From NCBI GenBank assembly GCA_963804645.1, contig CAWDRG010000019.1, forward strand, positions 64,001 through 128,000: a DNA stretch of 64,000 nt. The letters run 5' to 3'. Positions within the stretch are counted from its first letter, which is position 1. Every line of letters begins with the position of its first letter. Position numbers and translations under genes: made by a program. Origin of the DNA: an uncultured Bacillota bacterium (lineage in GTDB: Bacteria > Sysuimicrobiota > Sysuimicrobiia > Sysuimicrobiales > Segetimicrobiaceae). The notes under the pieces were generated by a model. That model ran no database searches, was not told the DNA's origin, and saw only the letters and a program-made list of their open reading frames with translations. This document shows, piece by piece, positions 47,753 to 53,028 of the stretch.

Positions 47753-48739
47753 CTACTCCTGCGGCCGAATGATGATCTTGCCGAACACGTCCCGCTCTTC
47801 CAGGAGACGCTCGCCCTCCGCGGTGGCGGCGAGCGGCAGGCGGCGGTCGATCACCGGGCGCAGCTGCCCCGACTGCACCGCACCCAGCACCGCCTCGAGG
47901 TCCGCGCGGCTCCAGCCGTCCGAGCCGAGCACGGTGAGCTCGCGGGTCCACACATAGCGGAGGTCGGTCTTCGCGTCGTACCCGGAGGTGGCGCCGCACA
48001 CCAGGAGCCGGCCGCCCTTGCGCAGGCTGCGGATGCTGCGCGGCCACGTGTCGGCCCCGGTGTAGTCGACGACGACGTCCACCCCGCGCTTCTGCGTGAG
48101 CCGCCAGACCTCCCGGTCGAACTCGACGTCCCGGTAGTTGATGAGGTGGTCGGCGCCGAGGGCCGCGAGCTTCGCCAGCTTGTCCTCGCGCGACGCCGCC
48201 GCGTACACGACGCACCCCGCGAGCTTCGCGATCTGGACGCACGCGGTCCCCACGCCGCCCGCCGCGCCGAGGATTAGGACGCGCTCCATCGGCTGCAGAC
48301 CGCCGCGAGTCACGAGCATGCGCCACGCCGAGCCGTAGGCGATCGGCAGGGCCGCGGCGTCGTCGAAGGTCATCGCGTCGGGGAGCGGGATGAGGTTCGC
48401 AGTCGGCACCCGGACGTACTCGGCGAGGCCGCCGGGGATGTCCTCGCCGATCGCGCCCCCGTCGATGGCGGGATCGACCACCACGCGCTCGCCCACCCGC
48501 ACCGCCGAGTCGCCGGGACCGATCTCCGCGACCACCCCCGCGATATCCCCGCCGGACGTGAACGGCAGGGGCGTGGGCTTCCCGGGCATGCCGCGCCGCA
48601 CGAACACATCGAGGTGGTTGAGGCCGCAGGCGTGGACCTGGACGACGGCGTGCCCCGGCCCGGCGCGGGGCGTCGGCACATCCGACTCGAGCCGCAGTAC
48701 GTCGCGTCCCCCGTGTTCGTGAAAGACGACCGCCCGCAT
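47753..48739 (-). CDS. MDR-family (zinc-binding / quinone) oxidoreductase
   Basis: GLNHLD, GAAGGVG, CGATSG, FGKIII. Confidence 0.88.
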   Translation of the reverse strand: MRAVVFHEHGGRDVLRLESDVPTPRAGPGHAVVQVHACGLNHLDVFVRRGMPGKPTPLPFTSGGDIAGVVAEIGPGDSAVRVGERVVVDPAIDGGAIGEDIPGGLAEYVRVPTANLIPLPDAMTFDDAAALPIAYGSAWRMLVTRGGLQPMERVLILGAAGGVGTACVQIAKLAGCVVYAAASREDKLAKLAALGADHLINYRDVEFDREVWRLTQKRGVDVVVDYTGADTWPRSIRSLRKGGRLLVCGATSGYDAKTDLRYVWTRELTVLGSDGWSRADLEAVLGAVQSGQLRPVIDRRLPLAATAEGERLLEERDVFGKIIIRPQE

Positions 48740-48860
48740 GATGTCTCCACCCCGTGCGGCGGACGGCCCCGTCGGCCCGCCCGCACTGCCGCTGTGGAAA
48801 CTTCGCGGCGTGCGGGCGCATCACCTAGATAAGATGAACGAGCCGGCGACCCGCGTAATA

Positions 48861-49110
48861 CCTGAATCCGGCGGCATCTGCGCAGACTTTGGAGCAAGCA
48901 CGACCTGCTCGCGGAAGCTCGCGAATTGCTTGGGCCGGTGCGATCCAAGGGACGAAATTGTGCCCTTCCAGGATAATCTACACTCCAGTGTAGATTATCC
49001 TGGCAGGGCACAATTTCGTCGTCCATCGGCCCGCCGGTGCATGTCATTGGCAAGCTTCCGCGAGCAGATCGTGCTGGCTCTAAAGTCTGGACATTTCCGC
49101 CGGATTCAGG
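48861..49110. mobile_element. 250-bp foldback MITE with IS1380-like ends
   Basis: CCTGAATCCGGCGG...CCGCCGGATTCAGG; TAATA duplicated at 48856-48860 and 49111-49115; palindromic along most of its length. Confidence 0.8.
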
Positions 49111-49166
49111 TAATACGTGGGTTGCCACCAGGACGGAGGCCTATCCACATACGGGGGTGCCGGCTC

Positions 49167-50275
49167 ATGGATCAGCATAGCATAGTGGTTGGTCTGGATG
49201 TCCACAAAGGGAGCATCACGGCCGCGGTCCTGCCGCCAAACGTTGCGCGGCCTCAGGAGACGTGCACGATCGAGAACGACGCGCGGGCCGTCGAGCGCTT
49301 GGTGAAACGGATCATGAAGAACGGGAATGCGGTGTTTGTGTACGAGGCGGGGCCGTGTGGATATACGCTGCACCGGCAGTTGTATCGTCTGGGCTGCCAG
49401 GCGGCGGTGATCGCCCCGGGCCTGACGCCCGTGCGTCCCGGCGATCGGGTCAAAACGGATCGGCGTGACGCGGAGAACTTGGCCCAACTCTATCGCGCGG
49501 GGCAACTCACGGAAATTCGGGTGCCCACCGGGGAAGAGGAAGCGGCCAGAGACCTCGTCCGTGCGCGCGAAGACGCCGTGGCCGACCGGCTGCGCGCCCG
49601 ACATCGGCTGAGCAAATTTCTCCTTCGTCAAGGACGGCTGTACGATGGCAAGCAAGCGTGGAGTCAGAAGCATTACGCGTGGCTCCGTCAGCAACGGTTT
49701 GAGTTGACGTTGGCCCAGCAGACGTTTGATGCGTATCTCCGCGGGGTCGAAGAAGCCGACGCCCGGTTGGCGAGTTTGACCACCCAGGTGCTCGAACTGG
49801 CGCAACGGCCGAGCTATGCGGCGCTTGTGCAAGGCCTGCGCTGTCTGAAAGGCGTCGACACGCTGACCGCGATCACACTGATTGTCGAAACACAGGACTT
49901 CCGGCGCTTTGGGCACGCCCGCGCGTACATGGACTTCACCGGCTTGGTGTGCTCCGAGAACAGCAGCGGAGACAGGACCCGCCGCGGCTCTATTACGAAA
50001 GTCGGCAACGCGCATCTCCGCCGTGTCCTGGTCGAGCGGCCTGGAGCTACTCGCATCACAACAGCAGCGGCGCGACGATCACCAAACGACGCCACGGCTG
50101 TCCGGCGGCAGTGGTGCAGATCGCCCGCCGTGCGCAGGACCGGCTTCACCGCCGCTACTGGCGCCTGACCCAGCGCAATAAGCCACGGCCAGTCGCGATC
50201 GTCGCCGTCGCGCGGGAGTTGGCAGGATTCGTCTGGGCAATCGCGCATAGCGTGTCGAGCACCACCGCGGCGTAG
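49167..50275 (+). pseudogene. IS110 recombinase #1, frameshifted near 50036
   Basis: GLDVHK, YEAG, KTDRRDA, SENSSG; LRRVLVE continues as AAWSY...AVARELAGFVW in another frame. Confidence 0.88.
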
Positions 50276-50339
50276 AGTACCAGGAACAGATTCCGAGGAT
50301 CGACGGACGTGTTCTGGACCTGGAGGCGAAGCAGCGGTC

Positions 50340-50472
50340 AGGAGCATCCTCGAGGGGTCTATGTGGCGGACAGGCTGACGTCTGTGCCGACCCACGTTCC
50401 TAGATTGAGGCAGCTCCCGACGAATCACAATCATGTGCGCTCTGCCCGCTTCGTGCGGGTAACCGCCGAATA
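50340..50472 (+). ncRNA. Putative bridge/seek RNA of IS110 #1, 5' part (continues at about 51905-51925)
   Basis: Stem-flanked internal loop carrying GGGGTCTA and CCTAGA, which match its own empty site CACCTAGACCTC; stem arm GAATCAC pairs with GTGATTC at 51910-51916. Confidence 0.65.
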
Positions 50473-50484
50473 CGCATGAAAATG

Positions 50485-51690
50485 TCAAGGCTTTTCTCGC
50501 TGCCTCGTGCCGTGGCGGGTAGCGACGAAGGCTCGGTAGTGTCCCTCCGCATCTTGTAAGACCTGCCGTTCTTCAGCCGGCGTCAACGTTTGCTCGTTGG
50601 TCTTGTCCGGCTTGCGTGGACGGCCCCGTCGGCTGGGTGCGCCTGCGGTCAGCTCCACTCGACGTAGCTTGTGCGCCGTAAGACTCGGAGGCGTCCATTT
50701 GTAGTCGGTCCTATCCGCGAGCAGGTGCCAGGCCACCACCGCTAGCTTGCGCGCCACGGCGACGATCGCGATGGCGCGCCCGCGGCGAGCGCGCACACGA
50801 TCGTAGAAGGCATGCAGAGGACCGGGCACACGGATTGCGGACTGGGCCGCTTCGACCAACAGCCCACGCGCATGCGCCTGTCCCTGTCGGCTGATGTGGC
50901 CTGTATGAGCGGGTCGCTCACCGGATTGGCGCACCCGTGGATCCAGGCCCAAATAGCCGACCAACTGCGTCGGCCGCTGAAACCGTGCGACGTCTCCGAT
51001 GACAGCGAGGAGAGCGACCGACGTGATCAACCCCACACCAGGGATCGTCATCAATCGCGTCGCCTGCGGATCCGCGAGAGCGGCCTGCGCGATCCGTTGT
51101 TCGGCTAACTTGATCTCCGCGTCGACGGCGGTGAGCAGGCGGAGCGCACTATCGACTTGGTCCTTCTCTTCGCGCGGAAGCGGCACACTCGCGAGCCAGC
51201 GACAGCCGGCCTTCCCGAACAGGTCCGTGAAGGAGTGTCCAATGAGATTGCGGTGCAGCACCCCGTGAATCCGATTCCGAAGACGCGTCCGCTGCTGAAC
51301 CAGCGACTGATGATGGGCGACCTGATGGCGGAGCGCTCGTGTCACCGGATCTGGTGTCCACACAGGCGGGATAAAATCCGCCGCGAGCAATTGTGCCAAA
51401 ATTGCGCTGTCCACTCGGTCAGTCTTGACCTTGGCACTCGCGATGGCCCGCGTGCGCATTGGATTGGACACAATGACTTCACCGGCATGCTCACTCAGCA
51501 ATTCGGCGATCGCCCATGTATTCACGCTCGCCTCGAGGACGACGCGATCCGTCGAGTGCAGCGTGCGCGCAAAAGCTCGCAATGCGGCGGGCGTCGTCTC
51601 AATGCGTTGCCGTTGCTGAACCTTGCGTCCGTGTTCAAGTACGGCGACTTCAGCAAAGCGTTTGTGGACGTCCAGCCCTATCGATCGCAT
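50485..51690 (-). CDS. IS110 recombinase #2 (intact)
   Basis: IGLDVHK, VLEAS, KTDRVDS, TIPGVG, RQSG, VAVARKL. Confidence 0.92.
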   Translation of the reverse strand: MRSIGLDVHKRFAEVAVLEHGRKVQQRQRIETTPAALRAFARTLHSTDRVVLEASVNTWAIAELLSEHAGEVIVSNPMRTRAIASAKVKTDRVDSAILAQLLAADFIPPVWTPDPVTRALRHQVAHHQSLVQQRTRLRNRIHGVLHRNLIGHSFTDLFGKAGCRWLASVPLPREEKDQVDSALRLLTAVDAEIKLAEQRIAQAALADPQATRLMTIPGVGLITSVALLAVIGDVARFQRPTQLVGYLGLDPRVRQSGERPAHTGHISRQGQAHARGLLVEAAQSAIRVPGPLHAFYDRVRARRGRAIAIVAVARKLAVVAWHLLADRTDYKWTPPSLTAHKLRRVELTAGAPSRRGRPRKPDKTNEQTLTPAEERQVLQDAEGHYRAFVATRHGTRQREKP

Positions 51691-51699
51691 GCAGACCCC

Positions 51700-51860
51700 C
51701 TTGGGACCCAGCCGGGCACCACAACACCTACGCATCCGCGCTCGCAGCGCAACCGGGTCAGTCGCAGGGGCGGCCAGATATCAGATCGGACTCGTGGTCC
51801 ATATTCGCGACGGCCTGCCCGTTGCTGGTGGTCCCTTGTGCCCCATGGCCCGGCTCCGCT
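51700..51860 (-). ncRNA. Putative bridge RNA of IS110 #2 (5' non-coding region)
   Basis: Minus strand: GGCCG-TCGCGAATAT-GGAC(CACGA)GTCC-GATCTGATATC-TGGCC target loop; a second loop around GCGC(TGCGA)GCGC carries ATGCGTA, matching the element end. Boundaries are approximate. Confidence 0.7.
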
Positions 51861-52206
51861 ACGATAAGTCGGAACCGGGTGGGACACCTCTTTCATAACC
51901 GATATCAGAGTGATTCACCGTCGCGAACGCTTCGCTTCCAGGACCCGAATACGCCGTCCATCCTCTGGGACGACGGAGGGCCGTTCGTGGCTTGACCTAC
52001 ACGGTACTTGACAGGCTCGTTCATATCAGACCTCGGGCGCGAGGCTCCGGTGGAGGAGGTCGCGGCCGATCCGCGAATCGTGATCCACGCACCGGGACGG
52101 TTCGTGGATCACGGAACCACGACATGCACGTATGCGCGCGGGCGGGGATCGCCGTTGTCGCCGCACGCCGCCCACCCCGATACCCCAGTTCCCTGGAGGC
52201 GCCGCC

Positions 52207-53028
52207 ATGAACGTGTTTGCCAGTCCGGAGATGATCCGATCGCTCACGCCGCTCAGCCGCTTCGACCGGTCACCCGACGGCCGGCCGCGGGTGCCGGACG
52301 ACGTGCTGGGACGCATCGCGCAGTCGTCGATCGAGCAGGCTTGGAAGACCCTCGGTCTGGCCGGGTACGATCACCAATTCGAGGGCAACTGGCTCCAAAC
52401 GCATCCCGGCCGCGTGCTGGTGGGCCGGGCGGTGACGGCCGTGTTCATGCCGTTCCGGCCGGATCTCGACGACGTGGTCATCGCGGGATCGGGCAAGCCC
52501 GCGGGGGAGCGCAAGGGGGGCGCCGGCCAAAACTCGTGGGTCATCGACAGCCTGCTTCCCGGCGACGTGCTCGTGGCAGACTTGTACGGCAAGATCGAGA
52601 ACGGGACGCTCGTCGGCGACAACCTCTCGACGACGCTCAGCCGACGGACGGGGGCCGGGGCTGTGATTGAGGGAGGCATTCGGGACTATGAGGGCGTGAA
52701 GCAGATCCCGTCCCTGCAGATCTTCTGCCGGGGCCTGCATCCGACCGCGATCCGCGAGATGTCGCTCGTCGGGGTCAACATCCCGGTGCGCATCGGCGGC
52801 GTGACGGTGCTGCCGGGCGACGTGGTGCTCGGCAAGGAGACGGGGGTGATCTTCATTCCGCCCCATCTCGCCGAGGACGTGGCCACGCGCGCGGAGGACA
52901 TCCGGCTGCGCGACATCTTCAGCAAGCAGCGGCTGGCCGAGGGGCGGTACACGGCATTCGCGATCGACAAGGACTGGACTCAGGACATCGAGGACGATTT
53001 TCGGAACTGGAAGACCGCGCGCGGGTAG
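52207..53028 (+). CDS. RraA-family (HMG/CHA aldolase-like) protein
   Basis: LVGRAVTA, GDNL, GGIRD, GVTVLPGDVVLG...GVIFIP. Confidence 0.85.
   Translation: MNVFASPEMIRSLTPLSRFDRSPDGRPRVPDDVLGRIAQSSIEQAWKTLGLAGYDHQFEGNWLQTHPGRVLVGRAVTAVFMPFRPDLDDVVIAGSGKPAGERKGGAGQNSWVIDSLLPGDVLVADLYGKIENGTLVGDNLSTTLSRRTGAGAVIEGGIRDYEGVKQIPSLQIFCRGLHPTAIREMSLVGVNIPVRIGGVTVLPGDVVLGKETGVIFIPPHLAEDVATRAEDIRLRDIFSKQRLAEGRYTAFAIDKDWTQDIEDDFRNWKTARG

Follow-up and report, generated by a model that had tools for sequence, protein, structure and literature searches.

The window analyzed here is a stretch of 64,000 nucleotides from an uncultured Bacillota bacterium (contig CAWDRG010000019.1, positions 64,001 to 128,000), located on contig C19 of a genome of 5.3 Mb in 22 contigs (G000; genomes, contigs, and loci carry our own G, C, and L numbers throughout). 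It holds two nested insertion sequences with IS110-family recombinases: an IS1111-type element on the plus strand (element 1) and, inside the region encoding the bridge or seek RNA of element 1, a second IS110-family element on the minus strand (element 2; Table 1). We consider it very probable, from sequence comparisons, that element 2 is an RNA-guided element aimed at the DNA encoding the donor guide of element 1, and that it has repeatedly inserted there. That element 2 is programmed to insert into the bridge RNA of element 1 had been proposed for 50461-51925 in an initial annotation of the window, and this interpretation is supported by the match between its loop and the site, by the invariance of that loop, and by recurrent insertion at the same base.

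The open reading frame (ORF) of element 2 (50485-51735, minus strand) contains both IS110 domains, PF01548 (2.2e-21) and PF02371 (6.5e-25), and its transposase matches NF033542, the NCBI model for IS110 RNA-guided transposases, at 2.2e-72, above the cut-off. The best matches in the PDB are ISCro4 (2.6e-21) and IS621 (1.3e-18). The recombinase consists of a DEDD (RuvC-like) domain plus a Tnp domain, both of them intact, and the ends of the element carry a 6-7-bp subterminal repeat, ATGAAA. In a circular form, the TTGACA of the right end and the TATGAA of the left end would be spaced by 17 nt, forming a predicted promoter; a junction promoter formed across the circle ends has been described for the family (PMC11208160). 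Element 2 is best explained as an active or recently active RNA-guided IS110-family insertion sequence, whose leader would encode a two-loop bridge RNA.

Element 1 is of the IS1111 type, with a DEDD recombinase and a downstream non-coding region. Hallmarks of the IS1111 group are subterminal inverted repeats of 7-17 bp and a long non-coding region downstream of the gene (PMC11208160, PMC11187229). The repeats of element 1 (ATGAACGAGCC/GGCTCGTTCAT) measure 11 bp, within that range, and its non-coding sequence amounts to ~325 nt downstream of the gene, against ~80 nt upstream, made up of the native left end and the leader. The left end, at ~48829, is placed by relatives in genomes G011, G012, G013, and G020 and by two further copies in G000, on contigs C16 and C17; CTAGATAAGATGAACGAGCC... 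is read from 48825, and in the C16 and C17 copies it runs directly into GTGGGTTGCC. The right end, ...CATATC plus AG, is common to all family members. The PDB match of the element 1 transposase to IS621 is weak (2.7e-5). Its gene has lost one base near 50034 in the window, while the frame is open in the copies on C6 and C16, each with an additional A, and contigs from public reads show an A inserted behind 50034 relative to the window.

Table 1. Coordinates of the two nested elements and their parts, in positions of the window.
Feature	Position	Strand	Remarks
Element 1, IS1111-type	48829..52027	plus	core AG outside at 48827-48828 and 52028-52029; two foreign insertions
Element 1 subterminal inverted repeat, left, ATGAACGAGCC	48834..48844	plus	11 bp
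Miniature inverted-repeat transposable element (MITE) "PAL", 248-bp hairpin	48862..49109		inserted in left end of element 1; GTAATAC flanks at 48855-48861 and 49110-49116
Element 1 transposase gene	49167..50275	plus	PF01548 + PF02371; NF033542 match; frameshifted near 50034
Element 1 bridge/seek RNA, 5' portion	50276..50472	plus	target loop and first half of donor loop
Element 1 target-loop 5' guide GAGGGGTCT	50352-50360	plus	covaries with right flank
Element 1 target-loop 3' side CCTAGAT	50399-50405	plus	consensus fold
Element 1 donor loop, first half, stem GAATCAC	50422-50428	plus	3' guide begins ~50465
Element 2, IS110-family	50473..51904	minus	1432 bp including one TA core copy; antisense to element 1
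Element 2 putative -35 box TTGACA	50483-50488	minus	right end; candidate circle-junction promoter
Element 2 transposase gene	50485..51690	minus	401 aa from MRSIGLDVHK; alternative upstream ATG at 51735 less likely
Element 2 donor-loop 3' guide ATGCGTA	51729..51735	minus	equals right-end terminus ATGCG plus core TA
Element 2 target-binding loop	51776..51810	minus	5' guide, hairpin, 3' guide
Element 2 target-loop 3' guide GATCTGATATCT	51776-51787	minus
Element 2 target-loop hairpin	51788-51800	minus	3 compensatory pairs across 15 clade members
Element 2 target-loop 5' guide TCGCGAATAT	51801-51810	minus
Element 2 putative -10 box TATGAA	51892..51897	minus	candidate circle-junction promoter
Element 1 bridge RNA, 3' portion, and right end	51905..52027	plus	outer stem, subterminal repeat, terminus; 100% identical in five copies
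Element 1 donor guide, remainder TCAGA	51905-51909	plus
Element 1 donor-loop closing stem GTGATTC	51910-51916	plus	folded with relatives
Element 1 subterminal inverted repeat, right partner, GGCTCGTTCAT	52014-52024		11 bp

Filled and empty copies of element 1

The left part of element 1 is found six times in G000, namely in the window (C19), on C6, C17, and C16, and twice on C21 (C21A and C21B). Its right part (51905-52032) is found five times, always 100% identical, with C21B running off its contig. The C16 copy is the sole uninterrupted one: the base matching 50472 directly precedes the base matching 51905, and the natural empty site reads ...CCGCCGAATATCAGAGTGATTCACC.... The other five copies hold an element of the element 2 type at the same base, in the same orientation and with identical junctions, with TA at both. 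The empty C16 copy holds the single occurrence, within 5.3 Mb of genome, of an 11-mer that bridges the site. An end of element 1 at 50472, with element 2 merely adjoining it, was also considered and is ruled out by this copy.

Public data contain the same two states. Contigs from peat metagenome DNA hold both the filled and the empty site, as well as left ends with and without the MITE, and the empty-site join (50469 to 51902) is present in one DNA metagenome contig and one RNA-library contig. The expectation that removing 50473-51904 would restore a contiguous sequence is thus met by natural sequences, in C16 and in these public contigs. A 207-base contig of a peat metatranscriptome joins 50399-50469 to 51902-52032, i.e. 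the uninterrupted donor module plus right end of element 1, and further RNA-library contigs cover 50225-50414 and 50677-50931. Such RNA-library contigs may derive from DNA and carry no strand or end information, and they give a weak hint of expression.

The residents differ far more than their hosts. The element 1 copies of G000 are ~100% identical to each other; C19 and C6 share one resident (2a, 100%), C17 carries a second (2b), and C21A and C21B carry identical copies of a third (2c). Identity between residents is 82% for 2a and 2b, 75% for 2a and 2c, and 91% for 2b and 2c. Because identical hosts carry residents that diverge by 9-25%, a single inherited insertion is excluded and at least three separate insertions into this lineage of element 1 are required. 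This points to repeated insertion, rather than one inherited event, as the probable explanation for the presence of element 2 in element 1.

Guide loops of the host and of the resident

We aligned the RNA regions of six natural relatives, either uninterrupted or loop-deleted. Conservation from ~50290 to 51950 far exceeds that of the coding sequence, and the consensus fold of this region has an outer stem around two internal-loop modules. The 5' side of the first loop varies among relatives and matches the right flank of each, on the antisense strand, ending in CT. In G000, for example, the guide is GAGGGGTCT and the flanks read ...GGGGT-CT (C6, C17) or ...GAGGT-CT (C19, C16), while the guides CGGTTCT (G012), CTGCGCT (G014), and GACTTCT (G011 C63) meet flanks CCGGTT-CT, GCTGCG-CT, and GGACTT-CT, respectively. 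Four of the five family members from which the guide region was extracted thus match 7 nt of their own right flank; the fifth, on G020 C10, matches its flank only in part, over four bases. From this covariation we identify the first loop of element 1 as its target loop.

The second loop holds the site of element 2. Its 3' side reads ...CGAATATCAGA, and the loop is closed by GAATCAC and GTGATTC, a pairing noticed initially across the insertion and now recovered in the consensus fold of four uninterrupted relatives. Within it, ATATCAG reproduces the right-end terminus, ATATC, followed by the core AG (the insertion core of element 1 on the sense strand) in five of the six aligned family members, with one mismatch in G011 C62. 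Since this segment repeats the terminus plus core of element 1, it is taken as the donor guide of element 1. The insertion point of element 2 lies between AATA and TCAGA, inside this guide. The left end of element 1 starts with A after the core, so ATATCAGA also spans the would-be circle junction. The site had been described as both donor guide and circle junction of element 1, and both identifications hold.

Two relatives depart from this structure. On G020 C10 (L055), a deletion of ~120 nt removes the entire donor loop, including the site of element 2, and G011 C62 has CA in place of TA at the core of the site. Both changes could be decay or escape from element 2.

The 214-nt leader of element 2 folds into two internal-loop modules. 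A consensus fold built from 15 clade members has 28 pairs, of which three show compensatory changes, all in the first hairpin. Five pairs are G-U in most sequences, which fits transcription of the leader on the transposase strand. The two sides of the first loop flank its hairpin (51788-51800), so that both guide strings reported for this RNA do belong to one internal loop. The 5' guide TCGCGAATAT reads like the plus strand of element 1 on the left of the insertion point; on the right, the sequence is complemented by the 3' side (TCTGATAT), (G)ATCTGATAT being the complement of ATATCAGA(T). The two sides overlap on the TA core, and CGAATAT plus TCTGATAT match opposite strands of CGAATATCAGA.

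These guides are the same in 2a, 2b, and 2c, and in the metagenomic loci L083 and L084, except for one position on the 3' side, despite up to 25% divergence of the elements. Over 9 bases, the 5' guide is a perfect match to CCGCGAATAT, the consensus of the site in the family. In G013, the 5' guide of element 2 has an extra C, giving a 10-nt match to the site in its own host, CGCCGAATAT, a possible case of co-variation with the host. The guide of the second loop covaries with the right end of the element, ATGCGT going with ...CATGCG in element 2 and ATCCGT with ...CATCCG in relatives. The 5' side of this loop matches the left end only in part (6 of 8, counting a wobble), and the match is ambiguous because CCGG is palindromic.

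Copies with these guides and relatives with other loops

Relatives were sought in 23 genomes of the same family and 94 of the same class. The nested junction is present in four of the 23 family genomes (G000, G013 C11, G019 C321, and G020 C22). The host in G013 is 95% identical to that of G000, and its element 2 is 98.4% identical to 2c; another G013 contig, C26, breaks off at the site. The contigs of G019 and G020 start inside element 2, and both the subtype of element 1 and the leader variants of element 2 differ; G019 C321 has the same nested junction and ends before the loop. Uninterrupted RNA regions of the element 1 family are found in G000 C16, G011 C62, G011 C63, G012 C38, and G014 C12. 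Searches of G011 and G012 for element 2 gave no match at all, and all element 1 relatives there are uninterrupted. G014, where the element 1 relatives are likewise uninterrupted, holds only a relative of element 2 with other guides.

We also scanned species-representative genomes and metagenomes for exact matches to a 30-base pattern across the loop of element 2, which returned one and six loci, respectively. Four of the seven (L078, L079, L081, and L082) show both canonical junctions in element 1. In two (L080 and L084), a truncated leader lies next to TATCAG(C/G)GTGATGACC, and one of the two has CCATATCAG 85 bases downstream, as the right end of an IS1111-type element would; BLAST of their flanks against element 1 gave no significant homology, and they are not counted as element 1 hosts. 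The seventh, L083, lies at a near-cognate site. Overall, 10 of the 11 copies that have these guides and a readable host flank lie in canonical elements of the element 1 family. The ten are the five in G000 and those of G013 C11 (= L078), G020 C22, L079, L081, and L082; L083 is the eleventh, and L080 and L084 are too truncated to read. Homologs with these guides therefore do not sit mostly elsewhere, an outcome that the initial annotation had set as grounds for abandoning its proposal.

Across the family and class genomes, members of the element 2 clade share the second module and differ in the first loop, and their flanks track the loop. We conclude from this that the clade retargets by changing its first loop. 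For example, elements with GCCTTTAT on the 3' side of the loop follow ...GCCTT-TA in G013 C7, G013 C6, G000 C19b, and G018 C512, a site that is antisense to the SPQ(G/A)KGR(V/I)ER codons of a transposase gene. In G013 C7, the flanks match the NCBI ISNCY model at 2-235 and 236-361 of 368, i.e. the gene is split at 235/236; a Pfam search with the C-terminal ISNCY fragment found nothing. Elements with GTTGGTA or GTTAGTA at the same place follow GTTGG-TA (G051 C310 and G027 C86), and the one on G027 C86 (L096, 642-1349) interrupts a type II asparaginase gene (TIGR00520, 8.2e-71, below the cut-off since the gene is partial). On G030 C78, the right-junction sequence is complementary to the 5' side, CAGGCGA. 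NCBIfam searches gave no match for the flanks on G036 C30 (IS256-like by eye, unconfirmed) and G014 C53, and no usable ORF was found in the flank on G018 C512. Judged by these flanks, the predicted targets of the clade are varied, with mobile elements among them but also other genes.

The elements with GCCTTTAT are L043/L088 (G013 C7), L046 (G013 C6), L006/L087 (G000 C19:~48900-50500), and L044 (G018 C512). Where they split ISNCY genes, the clade offers a further example of homing on a conserved stretch within a mobile element. The element on G030 C78 (L097, 1049-1609) splits an antitoxin-like gene beside a toxin-like ORF, both recognized by eye only.

Readings of the arrangement and other residents of element 1

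The sequences directly show how the two elements are built, that an empty site exists, that it has been occupied repeatedly, and that the guides match and covary, and a pathway can be proposed around these observations. Element 2 would excise as a circle, as expected from its family. Its recombinase would bind the leader RNA, the first loop of which would pair with both strands of the ~13-bp CGC(C)GAA-TA-TCAGA and the second with the joined ends of element 2 itself; exchange at the TA core would insert the circle in a fixed orientation. The 13-mer is the DNA encoding the 3' guide of the element 1 donor loop, which must match the right-end terminus plus core of element 1. Insertion would part the two halves of that loop by 1.4 kb, and the copy should lose its working RNA, while the ends of the composite would stay usable by an intact element 1 acting in trans. 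Each new copy of element 1 would then be a new landing site, and element 2 would ride in a multicopy, nonessential, and horizontally mobile sequence. RNA-guided catalysis, the loss of function of the element 1 RNA, and any fitness logic are what we infer from sequence. Element 2 would be a parasite in the sense of the initial annotation, presumably disabling the RNA of its host, at a landing place that may be neutral and that element 1 could probably not change with ease.

Several observations weigh against an element aimed at the guide of element 1. L083 is complete and has the same guides, and it sits at the near-cognate CGCGAATA|CCAGGGTGATC, outside any recognizable element 1; its flanks show no BLAST homology to element 1 and no transposase within ~500 nt. 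Nothing but a short motif links the hosts of the truncated L080 and L084 to element 1. Three of the metagenome loci are 99.9% identical to G000 copies, which makes them members of the same population and not independent, and all the nested genomes are relatives from one family. The 5' guides of the G000 copies are one C short of the site in their hosts, CGCCGAATAT, leaving seven contiguous matches or a bulge. When the 200-nt leader was dinucleotide-shuffled 2000 times and compared with the 30-nt site, 15 shuffles contained matches of 8 nt to one strand and of 7 nt to the other, matches being accepted anywhere, with position unconstrained. RNA evidence is limited to contigs from libraries that may hold DNA. 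Finally, the guide complementary to the transposase-sense strand comes first, and the opposite order is described for IS621 and ISEc21. IS1111-type seekRNAs are reported to have the same guide order as element 2 (PMC11187229), though the non-coding region of element 2 lies upstream, and the clade, with its upstream RNA, IS1111-type guide order, and ATGAAA repeat, may be an intermediate or a separate subgroup.

A single ancient, accidental insertion, after which the composite spread as a unit and its position was shared by descent, would account for the identical 2a of C19 and C6 in identical hosts, for the identical 2c of C21A and C21B, and for the parallel similarity of host and resident between G013 and G000; the intact ends of element 1 also make mobilization of the composite in trans mechanistically possible. 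We hold it to be very unlikely, given the divergence of the residents within identical hosts, the existence of an empty copy and of empty relatives, and a loop that reproduces the site and stays constant in an otherwise diverging element, with the other loops of relatives matching other sites. Least probable of all is an arrangement that serves the cell or element 1 itself, as a brake on surplus copies or with the donor-loop DNA as a decoy trap for element 2. Only one of the six copies of element 1 is intact in both RNA region and left end, and an unrelated IS1380-family element also targets one fixed site in element 1, as such a role might entail; there is, however, no sign of selection at the level of the host, and the pattern is what selfish, site-specific insertion predicts.

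More substance attaches to the view that the 13-mer merely happens to lie in element 1, and that the clade retargets to any conserved multicopy sequence with no specialization on bridge RNAs. We think this rather unlikely. The relatives in an ISNCY transposase gene, a type II asparaginase gene, and an antitoxin-like gene (by eye only) speak for it, as does L083, and it departs from the view that element 2 is aimed at the guide DNA in evolutionary intent only. Against it, the lineage of element 2 has diversified to 75% identity and yet kept this loop, with nearly all readable copies in the element 1 family, and the target is the one segment of the element 1 RNA gene that is tied to the terminus of element 1. 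Going beyond insertion into the guide DNA, we tentatively suggest, at somewhat less than even confidence, that the lineage is a dedicated hyperparasite of the IS1111-type family, locked on its donor-guide DNA and in an arms race with the host. That race would be visible as the one-base insertion in the G000 host site with the matching insertion in the G013 guide, the core change in G011 C62, and the loop deletion in G020 C10. If so, element 1 could not change the site without changing its own terminus, and element 2 may control the copy number of element 1, each transposition of which would give a fresh site.

Among described systems, IS621 and ISCro4 (PMC11208160, PMC11208158) resemble element 2 in their DEDD plus Tnp recombinase, in a non-coding region upstream of the gene, in an RNA with two loops, in each of which the two sides bind different strands (of the target or of the donor) and share the dinucleotide core, and in a -35/-10 pair that would form a circle-junction promoter. 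By contrast with IS621, element 2 has a TA core (CT in IS621), a mirrored order of loop sides, and the ATGAAA subterminal repeat, and its target is the guide-RNA gene of another element instead of repetitive extragenic palindromic (REP) sequences. The seekRNA elements ISEc11, ISPa11, and ISKpn4 of the IS1111 group (PMC11187229) are like element 1 in their downstream non-coding region, 11-bp subterminal repeat, and first RNA guide complementary to the top strand, an order that element 2 shares. Element 1 nevertheless differs from the seekRNA elements described and represents an undescribed branch.

IS110/IS1111-family elements are known to home into conserved sequences such as Tn21-family inverted repeats, integron attC sites, and REP sequences. 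Insertion into Tn21-family repeats and attC resembles that of element 2 in that a conserved functional sequence of another mobile element is targeted. Those targets, however, are protein-recognized DNA of unrelated elements, whereas the target here is the guide-coding segment of a member of the same superfamily. The group II intron RmInt1 is also an RNA-guided mobile element that reportedly homes into a site inside another, ISRm2011-2, and it is said to differ in its retrohoming mechanism and in targeting coding sequence, not a guide. The initial annotation knew of no description of the present arrangement, and in the literature on bridge and seek RNA elements, as excerpted, no insertion into the guide-coding DNA of another element is described, supplementary tables aside, which could list cases. 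The first descriptions of such elements date only from 2024, and the catalogue of the targets they choose in nature is still being compiled.

The locus suggests that guide-encoding DNA can serve as an address, conserved and specific to its element, to which another guided element can be programmed, and it would offer a natural system for conflict between two programmable recombinases. The clade further provides a natural series of reprogrammed target loops, directed at an ISNCY transposase motif, an asparaginase gene, and the element 1 RNA gene, and its upstream bridge RNA with IS1111-type guide order bears on how the IS110 and IS1111 groups relate. Annotators will meet composites of one IS110 element in another that resemble a single odd element.

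Element 1 hosts a second, unrelated, and site-faithful resident besides element 2. The MITE in its left end shares its terminal repeats (CTGAATCCGGCG...) with an IS1380-family element, which in the C21A copy occupies the same site as two full copies in tandem at GTAATAC (L085, C21 4896-7880). The C6 copy has a diverged, inverted MITE at the same GTAATAC (~106127-106392). All four copies of the IS1380-type element in G000 are at that single site of element 1, and none was found elsewhere in the genome. A DNA metagenome contig joins 48854 to 49110, i.e. a left end free of the MITE. An Rfam scan of 48000-53000 gave just sub-threshold microRNA-like matches, on the MITE hairpin. A left end of element 1 at 49110, with the hairpin (48862-49109) as its target, was dropped: relatives continue ~280 bases further left, and the hairpin is an inserted MITE.

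The GTAATAC heptamer is the center of a palindrome in the left end of element 1, and three of the six copies of element 1 carry the IS1380-family element or MITE. On C21:1-4895 (L085), two composites of element 1 and 2c follow each other head to tail at a distance of 52 bases; the left truncation of the second falls exactly at GTAATAC, and the contig ends within its copy of element 2. This layout suggests a rearrangement mediated by the resident elements.

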